A stretch of 64,000 nt of DNA from a phage. Shown one piece after another: positions 51,880 through 61,820 of this stretch. Every line of letters begins with the position of its first letter. The stretch's first letter is position 1. The stretch lies in NCBI GenBank assembly GCA_025812035.1, contig GCA_025812035.1_4719.1; one strand, written 5' to 3'. The notes beneath the pieces are model-generated. The model saw only the letters and a list, made by a program, of their open reading frames with translations, searched no databases and was not told the DNA's origin. The translations under genes were made by a program, and so were the position numbers.

Positions 51880-52833
51880 TCACGCCTTTGCTATATAGGG
51901 TTGGATCTCATTGATACGTTTAACCACAACCTCAGGGAAAAGTTTGAGTATTTCATCGGGTGGTATTGCACCTTCTGTCCAACGATAGCGTTCAACCTTC
52001 TCGATGCGTGGACTCCCTCCGACGTCAGCGATACGAAAGATACAGGCAATGCCTAAATCAAAACACACGCTGTAAATATCTTCCGTGCCTCCTTTATCAG
52101 CAAGTATTTTCGCAAAATGTTCGTTATCAGGAAGAATGGCTAAATTACGTATACGCCAAACATTATTACCCATTTCTTCAAGGATTGGGTATGTTAAAGT
52201 GTGTCCGTGTCGTGTTAACCATCGATGATTTTCGAGGTAGAAGTCCTTATCCCCTGGCCGGTAACCCAATATCACTCTGGTGTAGAAGAGATTGGGCATG
52301 TCGAGCAGTTCTTGAATCGTTGGACCGGTATACTCCCAGAGACAGATTTGTTTGCGGTCTATATCGTAATCTGTGACGTTACTCACCTCCCAACTTATCG
52401 TAAGTTCGTCAACAACATGCCAACCGAAAGTGTGTTCGCAGCCAAGCAGATTAACAATCGCTGATATCTCATGCTTGTCAAATACCCCCAAATTACATGG
52501 TGGCTGCATCGTACGTAATGGTTCCCACAACACACTGTAATCATAAAGCAAATGGCGACATAAACTTTTTGTTAAGGGTGTATGTTCAGTAAACAGTGGA
52601 AGAATCACCGTATCTAACAGTGGACGTAATGGATGGTTGTCAGGCGGTAGAGGAGAAACCAGACGACCTCCTTCTTTAGGGTAATCAAGACCAAACCCGT
52701 AACGCTCCGAAATGAGTGCGATCAGCACTTTTGCTACGCGATTACGTAGCATGCGATGGATATCATCACTGTAACTGAATTTCGGTTTATTTCCGCAAAC
52801 GAAGGTGAAGTATCTAGGTGATAACTTAACCAT
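51880..52833 (-). CDS. Hypothetical protein, ~317 aa
   Basis: ORF track 51880..52905; start moved to MVKLSPRY after AAGGAAAA. Confidence 0.55.
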   Translation of the reverse strand: MVKLSPRYFTFVCGNKPKFSYSDDIHRMLRNRVAKVLIALISERYGFGLDYPKEGGRLVSPLPPDNHPLRPLLDTVILPLFTEHTPLTKSLCRHLLYDYSVLWEPLRTMQPPCNLGVFDKHEISAIVNLLGCEHTFGWHVVDELTISWEVSNVTDYDIDRKQICLWEYTGPTIQELLDMPNLFYTRVILGYRPGDKDFYLENHRWLTRHGHTLTYPILEEMGNNVWRIRNLAILPDNEHFAKILADKGGTEDIYSVCFDLGIACIFRIADVGGSPRIEKVERYRWTEGAIPPDEILKLFPEVVVKRINEIQPYIAKA

Positions 52834-52843
52834 AATCTTTTCC

Positions 52844-53290
52844 TTAATCCAAATAGTACGTGATGGATAGGTCTTTTCCATTGAATACAATATCCGTACA
52901 GTCATGGATCGTCGGTAATACCATTTTGGCGGCTACCGGAACATACGCCTGCAACTCCATGAAGTTATCCATACGGAATGCACGACGCACCATCAACGGT
53001 GTTAGTGTAAATGTTACGCTGACGTTACCGCTTGGAGTCAAGTGCATTATCGCATGCCCATGATCGCACCAACAATGGTTTTCGATCCATCCAGTGTAAA
53101 TCAGAATATTTTTATCCTCGTCGTAATAAGCAATGCCAGTCTGCTTTAAACGGCTGGTAAATCGAGAGGCTTGCTCATAGCCTGCACGCAACATTCGAGC
53201 AACCAGGCGAGTGTTGTTAGCGATTCGATTCTGTTCGTTGGTTTTTGTGGTTTTGAAAAGTTCGATACGTTCTGCTTTTGTAATTTGCAT
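52844..53290 (-). CDS. Hypothetical protein, 148 aa
   Basis: ORF; Cys/His-containing HCWCDHGH segment. Confidence 0.5.
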   Translation of the reverse strand: MQITKAERIELFKTTKTNEQNRIANNTRLVARMLRAGYEQASRFTSRLKQTGIAYYDEDKNILIYTGWIENHCWCDHGHAIMHLTPSGNVSVTFTLTPLMVRRAFRMDNFMELQAYVPVAAKMVLPTIHDCTDIVFNGKDLSITYYLD

Positions 53291-54352: not shown

Positions 54353-55039
54353 TTAAGACGTTGCCATCTTATCTTCCAGAGACTTCTTCGGTAAACCATG
54401 GATAACTCCTTTCGGGGTTAAGAACACACAGTCTGGATTCTGCGTTCGCGAACGGTCGTCTGGAGTGTTCAACGAGAACAACAACGCAGAAATACCTTTT
54501 GTCCGGTTTAACGTCGCTACGATCACGTCAAGCTGTCGTAGTGCATCCGATACCGTTCGATGAGGAACGATTCGTGACTGTTTGAAGCTGGCTAACCGCC
54601 AAGTCTCGAACAAACAACGTAGTTTAAACACGTCGGACGGAACAGCAGTAGATCCCTGTTCGATAACCTCAACCCGATCAGCTTCAGGGTAACCTACAGC
54701 AACCGCACTAAAGTGTCTTACCCCGTTATGAAAATCATCGATAGATGCTTCAGCGTATTTACATACCGTGCCAGAAACGACCATCACTTTTGCTAAACCG
54801 CGATAGTTGATCGTCAGCGGAATACGAAATACACGTAAAGCATGTTCCGGATTTAATGAGACGTCGTTAACCTTTGTTGCGGTCAGCTTACCACGCTCGT
54901 AACGTGCGGTGAACGGCAGACCGTCATAAACGGGATTGATCACAACGCCCCCTGGGGAGGCGTTAGCATTGAGATGGGTGTTAAGCCAATCGGATACTTC
55001 CTGTCTACTAGTTACGATTAACATAAAACGATCCTCCAT
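54353..55039 (-). CDS. Hypothetical protein with weak resemblance to the NAD-ligase adenylation domain but lacking the KxDG lysine, ~228 aa
   Basis: ORF track 54353..55078; start moved to MEDRF after AAAGGAAAAG. NPVYDGLPFTARYERGKL...ALRVFRIPLTI parallels [18 protein letters not shown]...[12 protein letters not shown] in the ligase of this window, with V in place of the catalytic K. Confidence 0.3.
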   Translation of the reverse strand: MEDRFMLIVTSRQEVSDWLNTHLNANASPGGVVINPVYDGLPFTARYERGKLTATKVNDVSLNPEHALRVFRIPLTINYRGLAKVMVVSGTVCKYAEASIDDFHNGVRHFSAVAVGYPEADRVEVIEQGSTAVPSDVFKLRCLFETWRLASFKQSRIVPHRTVSDALRQLDVIVATLNRTKGISALLFSLNTPDDRSRTQNPDCVFLTPKGVIHGLPKKSLEDKMATS

Positions 55040-55049
55040 TTCTTTTCCT

Positions 55050-55700
55050 TTATTCATGACGAGTATCTTCCAAATCATCCCTTTGTTTTGTAAATTCTGA
55101 TTGCTTGCGATAAACCGTCCATGAGTCGTATATGCCGTGAAAGTTCAGATGACGTGCGTTTAAGTTAACGGTGAATTCCTCCACGTTAACGAAATCTGAA
55201 CGAAGCATCAGATGAAAGTTATCGTCCCCGGTGCAGCCGCCGTATCCTTCGCCCTGATAGACCAAAAGCTGATGTGGTTGAATACGCGAGGCAACCAACG
55301 CAGCTTGTGGTTCGCAGTAAGGCGGCCACGACAGTAAAATAACATCGTACTGTGAAAGATCGATGTTCGTGTAGTCGACCTGCTGAATGTCCTCGATAAA
55401 CGGGTGGGGATGTAATTCCGTATCGTAAGCGGTAATGTCCTCAACACCAAGTTTACGCAGGACGTAAGTCAGGTAACCTGTCCCACAACCCAGGTCAGCG
55501 ACACGTCTACCGTAACAGATGTTCGCCAACTGGAGTGCTGTATCCATAGTTAACAACGACCATCCAACGTGCTGGGTATATTCTTCACGTACATCCCACT
55601 GTTGGCGGTACGTCATGGGTTCTATGATATCCGCAAGCCGTGGATACGGCAACGGCATTTTGGTTTCGCCTTGCGTGAGTAATGCAATAACGTCGTTCAT
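55050..55700 (-). CDS. Small SAM-dependent methyltransferase, (D/N/S)PPY class, 216 aa
   Basis: Motif I VADLGCGTGYLTYVL, acidic AYD, motif IV LLSWPPY ~65 aa later; too short to carry a typical DNA-MTase target-recognition domain. Confidence 0.6.
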   Translation of the reverse strand: MNDVIALLTQGETKMPLPYPRLADIIEPMTYRQQWDVREEYTQHVGWSLLTMDTALQLANICYGRRVADLGCGTGYLTYVLRKLGVEDITAYDTELHPHPFIEDIQQVDYTNIDLSQYDVILLSWPPYCEPQAALVASRIQPHQLLVYQGEGYGGCTGDDNFHLMLRSDFVNVEEFTVNLNARHLNFHGIYDSWTVYRKQSEFTKQRDDLEDTRHE

Positions 55701-56179: not shown

Positions 56180-56719
56180 TTAAGCTCCTTTCTGTTTTGT
56201 TTTGATTGATGATGTTAACCAGGACGATCTTACAGTGAAACCCTCAGACTCATAGAACGCCTGGGCTTCGTCGTTATCAGCACGAACATCCAGACCGATA
56301 GAATGCCCACCGCATCGGTAAGCGATGTTACGTGCTTCATTCATCAAGGCGTGGCCGATACCACGTCCACGGTATTCTGGTTTTACAACAATCGATGTAA
56401 CGTCATGAATGCCCATATGGCTCTCTGTATTCACTTCCAAGAGACCTACTGGTATCGAAGCGACGGCGTCGATCATAACGACCAACTTTGCGGTGTCCGG
56501 TAAACGCTTTTCTAATTCTAAGGCATCGTATTCACGTTTTAAGTCAGGGATATTCTCGAACATAAACGTGGTGGCCCACGCCTCTGATTCTACATCGTCG
56601 AGAATACGATACAGTTCACGAATCTGTTGTTTATGTGGATAAAGGTGTGGGTCAGCGGCCGTTGAGGCGATAACGCAATAGAACGGTCGTTCATTAATAA
56701 CTACTGTTTTGATGCTCAT
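56180..56719 (-). CDS. GNAT-family N-acetyltransferase, 179 aa
   Basis: Motif A VVKPEYRGRGIGHALMNEA and motif B AQAFYESEGF. Confidence 0.75.
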   Translation of the reverse strand: MSIKTVVINERPFYCVIASTAADPHLYPHKQQIRELYRILDDVESEAWATTFMFENIPDLKREYDALELEKRLPDTAKLVVMIDAVASIPVGLLEVNTESHMGIHDVTSIVVKPEYRGRGIGHALMNEARNIAYRCGGHSIGLDVRADNDEAQAFYESEGFTVRSSWLTSSIKTKQKGA

Positions 56720-57222
56720 GCTAAAATTCCCTCATTACCTAACAGTCGATTACAGTGACGTCGGTACATTTGACAAAGTGTTGTGATTTGATAAAGTTTG
56801 TTATAGCGTATCTCGATACGTTTTTGCACCTCTTTCCATGGAAGTTTATCGTATTGTCGGTAACGATGAATTTCATTTAACATACGAAGACGAGTAGGAT
56901 CGGTATTCTTTATTGTCGTGAGCTTCACGCGTTGGTATCCGCGCTGTAGTCCCGATTCCGAATACGTGACACCAAACTCATCCTGAATGATAGTGATGAT
57001 CTCCCGCCATCGGCGCTTCTCACCGTCACGTAAGTGCACAACCCGTGCCAGAATGTCGTTCCGATTACGATGACTCAGTTTAATATTAAGCATCGAAGCG
57101 ATCGCGCTAATTGCTCTCTGACTCCGTCCTAATGCTTCACCGATTTCTTTTGATGTCATGACGCCAGCGTTTCGGCGTATGAATGCGATTTCGGTTGTTG
57201 TGTATTCTTTACCTGCTGCCAT
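56716..57222 (-). CDS. HTH-repeat paralog 6 of 6, 168 aa (putative DNA-binding protein)
   Basis: Two helix-turn-helix-like repeats (TTTEIAFIRRNAGVMTSKEIGEALGRSQRAISAIASML); C-terminal Trp/Tyr-rich region; tandem with five paralogs. Start uncertain (67-nt overlap). Confidence 0.55.
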   Translation of the reverse strand: MAAGKEYTTTEIAFIRRNAGVMTSKEIGEALGRSQRAISAIASMLNIKLSHRNRNDILARVVHLRDGEKRRWREIITIIQDEFGVTYSESGLQRGYQRVKLTTIKNTDPTRLRMLNEIHRYRQYDKLPWKEVQKRIEIRYNKLYQITTLCQMYRRHCNRLLGNEGILA

Positions 57223-57692
57223 TTCTTACCACGTGTGTTATAATAGTAACGCTGACAAAGATGTGTGTGATGATACTCCCGCTTGAACTCAACACTGATG
57301 ATGCGAGCAACTTCTCTCCAGTTAACCCCTTCACGTCGAAGTGCTGTGATGCGGTCTGAAATTTTGCACCATTCGCCAGGATCGTATCGTCGTAGCTTAT
57401 GACGTCGTATCACAGAGGCGACGCTTGCTTTCGAGCGGCCAAGGTGATTCGCCATTTGTTTAACCGAGTATCTGTGGATATTGCTACGGATATAGGAAAG
57501 CTCATCGTCAGTATACGTGGCGTTGGTTCTCGGCGAAGGGAACAACACGTACAACTTATTCTTAATCGCGCTTTCTGTACGTTGAAATACAGTAACCAGA
57601 TCACTAATCGGTGGTCTGGGTATCTGATATGCGTAATTCTCGAGGCGTGTGAGTTCCTCATCTGTCCAGCGACGGTACTTGCGCATGGGCAA
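57156..57692 (-). CDS. HTH-repeat paralog 5 of 6, 178 aa
   Basis: RRWTDEELTRLENYAY...; second repeat YTDDELSYIRSNIHRYSVKQMANHLGRSKASVASVIRRH. Confidence 0.55.
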   Translation of the reverse strand: MPMRKYRRWTDEELTRLENYAYQIPRPPISDLVTVFQRTESAIKNKLYVLFPSPRTNATYTDDELSYIRSNIHRYSVKQMANHLGRSKASVASVIRRHKLRRYDPGEWCKISDRITALRREGVNWREVARIISVEFKREYHHTHLCQRYYYNTRGKKWQQVKNTQQPKSHSYAETLAS

Positions 57693-58161
57693 CTCCTTTG
57701 TTTTTCATGTAGTAGCACCAACGTTGATACAACGCATGTTTATTCGTTGTAATCCCAAATTTAACAACAACGTCGTACGTAATAACATTCCAATTTTGGG
57801 TAACGTTAAGTCGTTCCGCGATAAACGCGATGATCGCTTCCCGTTCTTGCTTGGTTAATGCACGACGAATTCCATTAAGCCGTATAAACTGACGAACTGA
57901 GTCATACGAACGGTTTAAATCGTACGCGATCTCACGCAACGATTTTTGTTTGATTACGGACTTAATATACGCACGTTCTTCTTCCGTATATGGTCGATGC
58001 TTTTGGCGTTGGCGTATTCCCAAACGCCCCAGACACGCGTCGATGCTGGCGTGTGTTCGTCCTGTCCGTTGTGCAATTTCATCAATCGTCAGCGACGTGT
58101 TCAAGTACAGATGTGTAACATCTTTTAACTCATCGTTACGCCACGGCCGAGGTTGTCCCAT
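57658..58161 (-). CDS. HTH-repeat paralog 4 of 6, 167 aa
   Basis: RPWRNDELKDVTHLYLNTSLTIDEIAQRTGRTHASIDACLGRLGI; YTEEERAYIKSV...SLREIAYDLNRSYDSVRQFIRLNGI; C-terminal LYQRW. Confidence 0.6.
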   Translation of the reverse strand: MGQPRPWRNDELKDVTHLYLNTSLTIDEIAQRTGRTHASIDACLGRLGIRQRQKHRPYTEEERAYIKSVIKQKSLREIAYDLNRSYDSVRQFIRLNGIRRALTKQEREAIIAFIAERLNVTQNWNVITYDVVVKFGITTNKHALYQRWCYYMKNKGVAHAQVPSLDR

Positions 58162-58639
58162 CGTGTATCCCTCTTTTCTTTCTATGATGCCACCAACGCT
58201 GATAAACAGCTTGCTTCGTCCGTGTTATGCCAAAATGCGCATTAACCCGTTCAGCAATGTGGTACCAATCCTGCGTTTCTTCTAACAATGCATCAACGAA
58301 GGCTATGAAGATCTTAGTATCATCCTCGCTTAACCGCTTGAAGCCATGGCGGTGTGCTATTGTTCGAATACTGTTTGGATCTCTGTTTAAATCGCGTGCA
58401 AGCTGTTTGTAACTTTTGTGCTTACAGTGTAGCCTGATATGTTCCAATTCATCGACGCTGAAACGTTTATGTGGTTTACGGCGTTCGACGTTTAAGTACC
58501 TCAACCTCGATTCGATTGCACCGTACGTCGTTTCCATGATTTCCGCGATTTCACGGATTTTTAATTTCGGACGACGGTCGTACAATTTCAGCAACTGTTC
58601 GTCGTACTGACGATTCCATCGTCGTATAGGTGGTTTCAC
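58136..58639 (-). CDS. HTH-repeat paralog 3 of 6, 167 aa
   Basis: RRWNRQYDEQLLKLYDRRPKLKIREIAEIMETTYGAIESRLRYL; FSVDELEHIRLHCKHKSYKQLARDLNRDPNSIRTIAHRHGF; C-terminal VYQRWW. Confidence 0.6.
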   Translation of the reverse strand: MKPPIRRWNRQYDEQLLKLYDRRPKLKIREIAEIMETTYGAIESRLRYLNVERRKPHKRFSVDELEHIRLHCKHKSYKQLARDLNRDPNSIRTIAHRHGFKRLSEDDTKIFIAFVDALLEETQDWYHIAERVNAHFGITRTKQAVYQRWWHHRKKRGIHDGTTSAVA

Positions 58640-58652
58640 AACTAAGATTCTC

Positions 58653-59120
58653 CTATTCTACGCGTCTTAATGCCTGAGTGTAGTAAAGAGCATGAACTCC
58701 GCTTAACGTGTAATGGGTGTTAAATTCGTTATTGATGATATTCCGTATTCTCTCCCAGGTTTTCTTCTCTTTTCTAAGAGTGTGTATTCGATGATAAATC
58801 ATCTCTCTACGTTGCGCCTTGCATGCAACGATGCCGTAACGGTAGCAGAGTTTAGCGATCGCGTCCACGCTACGATTGAACATTACGGCGGCTTCTTTTA
58901 CGCTGTGTGTTTTAAGATAATCGGCTAACATTACCCGTTCTTCGAAACAACAATAGCGGTGACGTGACATGAGTTTCCAGCGCTTGCGATTGCGGTTAAT
59001 TCGACCTTGAACCGAACCTTCCGTTCGGCCAAGCCGTACCGCAATCTCTTGCATCGGGATACCGTTTCGATAGAGGGTAATCAACAACGCATCTTCTTCG
59101 GGTGTCCAGTCCTTGACCAT
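58653..59120 (-). CDS. HTH-repeat paralog 2 of 6, 155 aa
   Basis: KDWTPEEDALLITLYRNGIPMQEIAVRLGRTEGSVQGRINR is a Myb/SANT-like pattern; second repeat FEERVMLADYLKTHSVKEAAVMFNRSVDAIAKLCYRYGI. Confidence 0.6.
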   Translation of the reverse strand: MVKDWTPEEDALLITLYRNGIPMQEIAVRLGRTEGSVQGRINRNRKRWKLMSRHRYCCFEERVMLADYLKTHSVKEAAVMFNRSVDAIAKLCYRYGIVACKAQRREMIYHRIHTLRKEKKTWERIRNIINNEFNTHYTLSGVHALYYTQALRRVE

Positions 59121-59132
59121 AATGCCACCCCA

Positions 59133-61820
<2,688 letters not shown>

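Follow-up and report, generated by a model that had tools for sequence, protein, structure and literature searches.

A 64,000-nucleotide stretch of phage DNA (the window; GenBank assembly GCA_025812035.1, contig GCA_025812035.1_4719.1) shares 91.5% DNA identity with Escherichia phage vB_EcoM_Goslar, a jumbo phage of 237 kb that forms a nucleus. On its minus strand, at 54353..55024, it carries a gene for a protein of 223 amino acids (the candidate) that is homologous to Goslar gp110. The candidate is fairly likely to be a non-catalytic remnant of the adenylation domain of a viral DNA ligase (LigA) dependent on nicotinamide adenine dinucleotide (NAD+). The part concerned is a block at residues 4-90 (54755..55015, minus strand) that resembles the first half of this domain in hhalign comparisons with viral LigA profiles, and true homology of the block to LigA is likely. 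Judged from the sequences, the similarity most likely reflects common descent. In the proposed history, the first ~90 residues would come from the adenylation (nucleotidyltransferase, NTase) domain of a viral NAD+-dependent LigA, namely from its first half. Structural glycines and hydrophobic positions would have been retained while the residues that carry out the chemistry or hold the nucleotide were swapped out. The remnant would then have been fused to, or have diverged into, lineage-specific sequence, the C-terminal 130 residues not being recognisably ligase-like, and the exapted protein would serve as a scaffold or binding module without catalysis.

The similarity was detected with profiles of viral ligases. 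A first profile was made from 14 phage LigAs sampled at regular intervals from a ranked tblastn list, which was seeded by the window's ligase and not by the candidate; the ligase of a Moabite-type phage and the phage's own ligase were left out. When the alignment of the gp110 family was compared with this profile by hhalign, a probability of 85.9% and a P value of 5.2e-6 were obtained over 80 columns (85.3% and 6e-6 in a repeat run), and leaving out one LigA at a time gave P values of 1.3e-6 to 1.4e-5. None of 800 column shuffles reached the family score (maximum 27.4 versus 44.8 observed; Gumbel P 1.3e-6). As a single sequence the candidate scored 38.5 on the same profile, against a maximum of 25.0 among 1,063 other open reading frames (ORFs) of at least 60 amino acids drawn from the window together with 150 kb of Goslar (~214 kb in all). 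This null set gives a Gumbel per-test P of 3.8e-6 and a family-wise P of ~0.004. The comparison was replicated with 75 viral LigAs from IMG/VR, each less than 70% identical to the set of 14, and the match was found in the same register over 87 columns (probability 91.5%, P 8.5e-7). With this profile the next-best ORF of the window scored 26.2 versus 45.0 for the candidate. Overall, the observed scores on viral profiles span 38.5-50.7, and no shuffle or real ORF came above 27.4.

The matched block runs collinearly with residues ~84-176 of E. coli LigA, a span that opens with the helix preceding motif I and closes with the motif III strand. Its elements are that helix, the motif I strand, a beta-hairpin, the RGDG loop and helix, an IPL segment and the motif III strand. 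The same register was found by MAFFT in an unsupervised alignment. Within the IMG/VR set, 33 near-identical gut-phage LigAs (L180-L211 and L214) do not match the candidate (P 0.095), and the remaining 42 viral LigAs, many of them on contigs longer than 100 kb, account for all of the signal (P 9.5e-7). The similarity is therefore restricted to some of the viral ligase lineages. A different ligase match served as a comparison. In a BLASTP search the candidate also hit the oligonucleotide-binding (OB) domain of a T7-like ATP-ligase, namely residues 228-336 of the ligase of Escherichia phage pO91 (L005 820-1860), with 33.9 bits and an E value of 1e-6 for the pair. Against a profile of 25 such ligases the P value was 0.11-0.23, and the match was rejected as chance. 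This hit collapsed at the profile level, as chance hits do; the LigA hit grew and does not behave in that way. The pO91 case is also a caution that E values for single pairs overstate significance.

An earlier reading made from the letters of the window alone (the sequence-only reading) had likened the candidate by eye to the motif I region of the window's own ligase and had proposed a possible catalytically dead paralog of its adenylation domain. The two peptides that it set side by side are encoded where it placed them: NPVYDGLPF from 54937 on the minus strand, inside the ORF 54353..55078, and the ligase motif I peptide from 61173, with the motif I Lys116 at 61165-61167. The ligase itself (59446..61512, minus strand; 688 amino acids; the counterpart of Goslar gp121) was identified by Pfam and PHROG matches and is complete, with DNA_ligase_aden at 7e-79 as well as OB, Zn finger, HhH and BRCT domains. 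In a direct BLASTP comparison with it the candidate scored 23.5 bits (13/45 identities; E=0.009 for one comparison), and Smith-Waterman shuffles gave p ~0.004-0.011. Taken alone, the resemblance noted by eye between the candidate and the ligase of the window does not reach significance. Moreover, this ligase ranks only 43rd of 121 LigAs by match to the candidate, and no viral LigA exceeds 33.5 bits, so a recent duplication of the phage's own ligase was rejected. The top single match was a Moabite-type phage ligase (33.5 bits, 32/115 identities); a donor ligase lineage was not identifiable. A tblastn search of 2.3 Gb of phage genomes with the candidate returned few groups of non-self hits, and none of these rose above noise (E 3-8); among them were NAD-dependent ligases of Moabite-type jumbo phages (E 6-8) in the same register. 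Likeness to the LigA adenylation domain thus stood for residues 4-90, in the register noted by eye and at HH probabilities of 85-92%, but it is not specific to the phage's own ligase. The profile comparison that the sequence-only reading had proposed as a check did find similarity to viral LigA.

The catalytic residues of the ligase have largely been lost from this block. In an alignment of 11 family members, motif I (ExKxDG in LigA) corresponds to N30-P-V32-Y-D34-G35 (54920..54937, minus strand). Val32 (codon 54929-54931) occupies the position of the KxDG lysine in all 11 distinct members, which bears out the replacement of this lysine by valine that had been read from the candidate alone. 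Position 34 is D, N or A within the family, and G35 is invariant. The equivalent of motif III (EVRGEV in LigA) is V82-V-S-G85-T86-V87 (54764..54781, minus strand), in which the glycine is kept. To map single residues, E. coli numbering (KLDG at 115) was transferred through an enterobacterial LigA in the unsupervised MAFFT alignment. On this map E113 falls on N30, K115 on V32, D117 on the variable position 34, G118 on G35, R136 (the RGDG arginine) on N53, E143 on E60, and E173 on T86, so that EVRGEV becomes VVSGTV. Further along, R200 falls on H155, R208 on R163 and K290 on G210, and K314 has no counterpart. In LigA, K115 is the adenylated lysine of KxDG, E173 and K290 contact NAD+, and R200 contacts DNA (PMC8123306). 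The positions kept in the matched half of the candidate are glycines, hydrophobic residues and a few others. The tested catalytic and pocket residues of this half have all been replaced, and only the glycine of KxDG is kept. With these residues the candidate would be unable to form lysyl-AMP, and so could not be a ligase. Since the lysine and the other tested catalytic residues of the segment are replaced, the description as catalytically dead holds, provided that the homology is real.

Several results, given in this paragraph and the next, weigh against descent from LigA. They would fit an unrelated, lineage-specific ORFan, in which the likeness to LigA is a chance product of a helix followed by strands rich in G, L, V and P, the eye having been caught by the resemblance of YDGL to KxDG. 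The candidate belongs to no curated family. Five tested members had no match in Pfam, PF01653 included, at E<=10. PHROGs and NCBIfam gave no family for the window's protein even at E<=10 and no ligase match; the sole sub-threshold match was that of member P0002 to an unrelated rhamnosidase model (13.5 bits, with a cutoff of 1800 bits). PDB sequences were matched neither by the single sequence nor by the profile. A hidden Markov model of 120 LigA adenylation domains, mostly gammaproteobacterial, ranked the candidate first of 313 non-ligase ORFs, at a non-significant E=0.23; a model of phage LigAs in HMMER again placed it first among non-ligase ORFs, at E=0.24 only. Compared by hhalign, the same bacterial alignment gave a probability of 52% and P 1.5e-4 over 84 columns, with candidate residues 6-89 on ligase residues 87-178. 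With the phage's own ligase removed P was 5.5e-4, and column shuffles agree (0/600, Gumbel 5e-4). The addition of 80 diverse bacterial and archaeal LigAs weakened the match to P 2-4e-3, and the bacterial profiles as a whole are borderline (P 1.5e-4 to 3.8e-3). When another 150 kb of Goslar was scanned with the bacterial profile, one ORF, a 969-amino-acid virion protein, outscored the candidate. On bacterial profiles alone, chance could account for the match, since a find made by eye involves many implicit comparisons. The viral profiles call for reserve as well: several ligase profiles were tried and the best P values need a roughly five-fold discount, with genome-wide significance still holding. 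The poorest scores come from P0003, the member that diverges most (P 0.002-0.007), and the family alignment is shallow (effective number of sequences 1.3). In addition, the tblastn hits stayed at noise level. A 77-amino-acid and probably non-coding Goslar ORF (L120, minus strand frame 0, ~aa offset 7138, Goslar 176-226 kb) contains FDGLYIRLQYRN, which mimics motif I and the hairpin of LigA, and this ORF is the second-best HMMER match to the phage LigA model (E 0.65). The short motif alone can therefore arise by chance in the Goslar genome.

The remainder of the candidate adds to these reservations. Residues 90-223, some 60% of the protein, have no significant similarity to ligases by hhalign. 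A weak second block at residues 146-186 (54467..54589, minus strand), SFKQSRIVPHRTVSDALRQLD...ALLFSLN, was placed by hhalign (P 0.06-0.09) and by MAFFT at the same position, collinear with the helix and motif IIIa strand of LigA, NPRNAAAGSLRQLD...RPLxFxxY. It is not significant alone, and its placement requires ~40 inserted residues behind motif III. Significance did not rise when the N-terminal block was chained to the PHRTVSDALRQLD block by a gap-tolerant position-specific scoring matrix. Motif IV was put at differing sites by MAFFT and hhalign, with no stable or significant alignment, and in the MAFFT placement of motifs IV (DGxVxK) and V no lysine stands at the K290 or K314 positions. A register that equates 'TKVNDVSL' with motif IV 'IKVNDLAL' was dropped, as it reached P 0.04-0.06 and was preferred only for P0003 with bacterial profiles. 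Likewise, assignment of the middle of the protein (VVSGTV...ADRVEVIEQGSTAVP) to the OB domain of LigA (GDxVxVxRAGDVIP) was rejected (hhalign P 0.29). According to the MAFFT alignment the start of the candidate falls precisely on the PMLSL strand of the NTase core, with no domain Ia, and OB fold, Zn finger, HhH and BRCT are missing too. Structure prediction, a further check proposed by the sequence-only reading, gave no confident model of the family. AlphaFold2 run on a four-sequence alignment of the family gave a mean predicted local distance difference test score (pLDDT) of 35.7, and Foldseek found no match for the model. With a mixed alignment that included 119 LigA rows, pLDDT rose to 71-91 for residues 33-89 only, residues 90-223 staying below 50; this model matches LigA adenylation domains (Foldseek E 7e-4, template modelling score 0.26), which is circular and has no evidential weight. 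The nucleotidyltransferase fold proposed earlier is represented by profile similarity to its first half, and a complete domain was not recovered. Half an NTase domain is not known to occur as an autonomous fold, and attempts to map the C-terminal half gave no stable placement. Even so, an ORFan with a fortuitous resemblance, the main rival reading, is unlikely, because it would have to account for two independent viral LigA profiles that agree in register and are stable to leave-one-out, for scores that neither the shuffles nor the real ORFs approach, and for a LigA match that grew at the level where the T7-like control collapsed. The relationship escapes Pfam, PHROGs, HMMER and bacterial LigA profiles and emerges only with profiles of viral ligases.

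If the block does derive from LigA, its present role may be pictured in several ways. The sequence-only reading had suggested an NAD+- or nucleotide-binding regulator or a decoy. Put more broadly, a fold that lacks the lysine but is otherwise competent would still bind NAD+, adenosine monophosphate (AMP) or another nucleotide and serve as a sensor, regulator or decoy. The similarity to the adenylation domain itself, the occurrence of G35, G45, E60, G85 and R163 on conserved LigA positions, and the presence of an active LigA nearby in the same phage are in keeping with this suggestion. However, the replacements E113N, K115V, R136N and E173T empty the pocket, D117 is unconserved even within the family, the K290 and K314 lysines were not found, domain Ia, which is needed for NAD+ recognition, is absent, and AlphaFold2 builds no complete domain even with ligase rows added. 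Such a nucleotide-binding fold is very unlikely. More generally, binding of NAD+ or AMP by the candidate would be unlikely because the pocket residues are replaced and the domain Ia that binds nicotinamide mononucleotide is missing. A non-canonical nucleotidyltransferase that is still active through another lysine is hardly credible: the matched block does hold several invariant lysines (for example K51, K79 and K89), but the motif I lysine and the residues of motifs III, IV and V are all missing or unlocatable, and no covalent nucleotidyltransferase is known to function in the absence of this combination. A non-catalytic remnant could instead have kept a link to its former pathway. An exapted half-domain of this kind might bind nicked or adenylated DNA ends, or dock on the OB/HhH region of LigA, whether that of the host or of the phage, and so inhibit or redirect this enzyme; that it still acts on the ligation pathway is quite unlikely. 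In view of its isoelectric point of 9.2 the candidate may bind nucleic acid.

Whatever its origin, the candidate is a real protein-coding gene under strong purifying constraint. This follows from ratios of non-synonymous to synonymous substitution rates (dN/dS) of 0.06-0.11 in both halves, a strong Shine-Dalgarno sequence and 11 distinct homologs. Four genomes were compared: the window and Goslar, together with a Goslar-like contig of 244 kb from a Shigella assembly and a metagenomic fragment of 3.3 kb. The ratios were obtained for the five of six pairs in which dS could be estimated, and the N- and C-terminal halves behave alike. The maximal ORF in the program-made list is 54353..55078 (minus strand, 241 amino acids) and holds three more in-frame ATGs, at 55039, 55057 and 55078. 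The true start is probably the ATG at 55024 (Met19 of the long ORF), which gives the 223-residue protein, because GGAGGA lies 7 nt upstream (55032..55037, minus strand, read from the sequence), because this ATG falls beyond the stop of the upstream methyltransferase gene (55050), and because homologs use the same start: the equivalent ATG is the annotated one in Goslar and is also called in the most divergent homolog. The annotation of starts in the gp110 family is inconsistent, however, as public calls for close homologs use Met8, Met14 or Met19. The predicted protein has a mass of 24.7 kDa and is soluble, with no hydrophobic segment. A scan for sigma-70 promoters and terminators found nothing beyond shuffle expectation.

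The candidate shares 95% amino acid identity with Goslar gp110 (YP_009820795.1), which is annotated as hypothetical, lies on the same strand in the same place between the S-adenosylmethionine (SAM) methyltransferase gene and gp109, and shows no difference of substance. The gp110 family comprises 11 distinct sequences that are 69-98% identical over their full length, all from Goslar-like contigs of ~240 kb or fragments of such contigs, and its position is syntenic in Goslar and in the 244-kb Goslar-like contig. A word-indexed search of 5.8 billion proteins gave four clusters for the candidate, and when 1.84 billion representatives were scanned exhaustively with an HMMER profile, nothing besides the gp110 family itself was recovered. 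IMG/VR and JGI metagenomes contributed only sequences 86-98% identical. Deeper sampling of homologs by protein searches, IMG/VR and JGI thus yielded only Goslar-like sequences at least 69% identical, and the alignment stayed shallow. The family is confined to Goslar-type (Goslarvirus) nucleus-forming jumbo phages. A library of papers was searched for gp110, its accession and ligase pseudoenzymes, and no mention was found in it.

In the window the candidate lies in a co-directional block of accessory genes on the minus strand. From upstream (higher coordinates) to downstream, the block consists of the ligase, a homolog of Goslar gp120, five tandem paralogs of helix-turn-helix (HTH)/Myb-like type, a GNAT acetyltransferase, a small ORF, the SAM methyltransferase, the candidate and further ORFans. 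The five consecutive and partly overlapping HTH/Myb-like genes (56716-59120, minus strand) encode proteins of 155-178 amino acids assigned to PHROG 323, 'transcriptional regulator, D5-like'. The five proteins are mutual paralogs at 23-28% identity, with common repeated HTH/Myb-like units. This tandem array of small DNA-binding proteins stands between the GNAT gene and a gap of ~100 amino acids preceding the ligase gene, which is the position of the SANT/Myb protein gp119 in Goslar. The 3' end of the SAM methyltransferase gene (55050-55700, minus strand) is overlapped for 29 nt by the maximal ORF of the candidate (extension 55025-55078, minus strand). In the most divergent relative, with a 69%-identical homolog (L002 1-3251, a metagenomic fragment), the gp110-type gene directly follows the GNAT gene, with neither the methyltransferase nor the small ORF between them, and the downstream gene encodes 120 instead of 199 amino acids. 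Insertions or deletions thus alter the accessory block from phage to phage, with gp110 kept throughout these relatives. Elsewhere in the window, a maximal ORF of 341 amino acids (51880-52905, minus strand) probably starts internally, because its Goslar counterpart gp106 has only 317 amino acids and because it overlaps the stop of the next gene (52844-53290, minus strand) by ~60 nt.

Compared with known proteins, the candidate is closest to the LigA adenylation domain (PF01653), especially in its versions from large or jumbo phages. It shares with them xDGL, YExGxL, GE(D), R..IPL and the glycine of RGEV, and its own peptides follow in the order NPVYDGLPF...RYERGKL...FRIPLTI. It differs in that it lacks membership at the Pfam level, has Lys115, Glu113, Arg136 and Glu173 replaced, offers no demonstrable motifs IIIa, IV and V, carries ~40 extra residues after motif III and has 223 amino acids versus ~670-690. 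The subunits of split ligases keep the full adenylation domain with its catalytic lysine and are active with a partner subunit. A stand-alone adenylation-domain polypeptide without the C-terminal DNA-binding domains is found in split phage NAD+-dependent ligases, such as the PR1 phage ligase (PDB 9hu3), which came up among the Foldseek matches of the circular mixed-alignment model. Unlike these, the candidate occurs in a phage with a full-length LigA and lacks both the lysine and half of the recognisable domain. A pseudoenzyme that arose from an NAD+-dependent DNA ligase and lacks the lysine is not known to have been described before.

The finding has no bearing on a long-standing question and its functional part is conjecture, so its value is modest. 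If true, it would be a rare case in which the catalytic domain of a DNA ligase was trimmed and lost its active site yet stayed under strong purifying selection beside an intact ligase. It would thus add a pseudoenzyme and would give an evolutionary origin to one of the numerous genes that lack annotation in Goslar-type phages.

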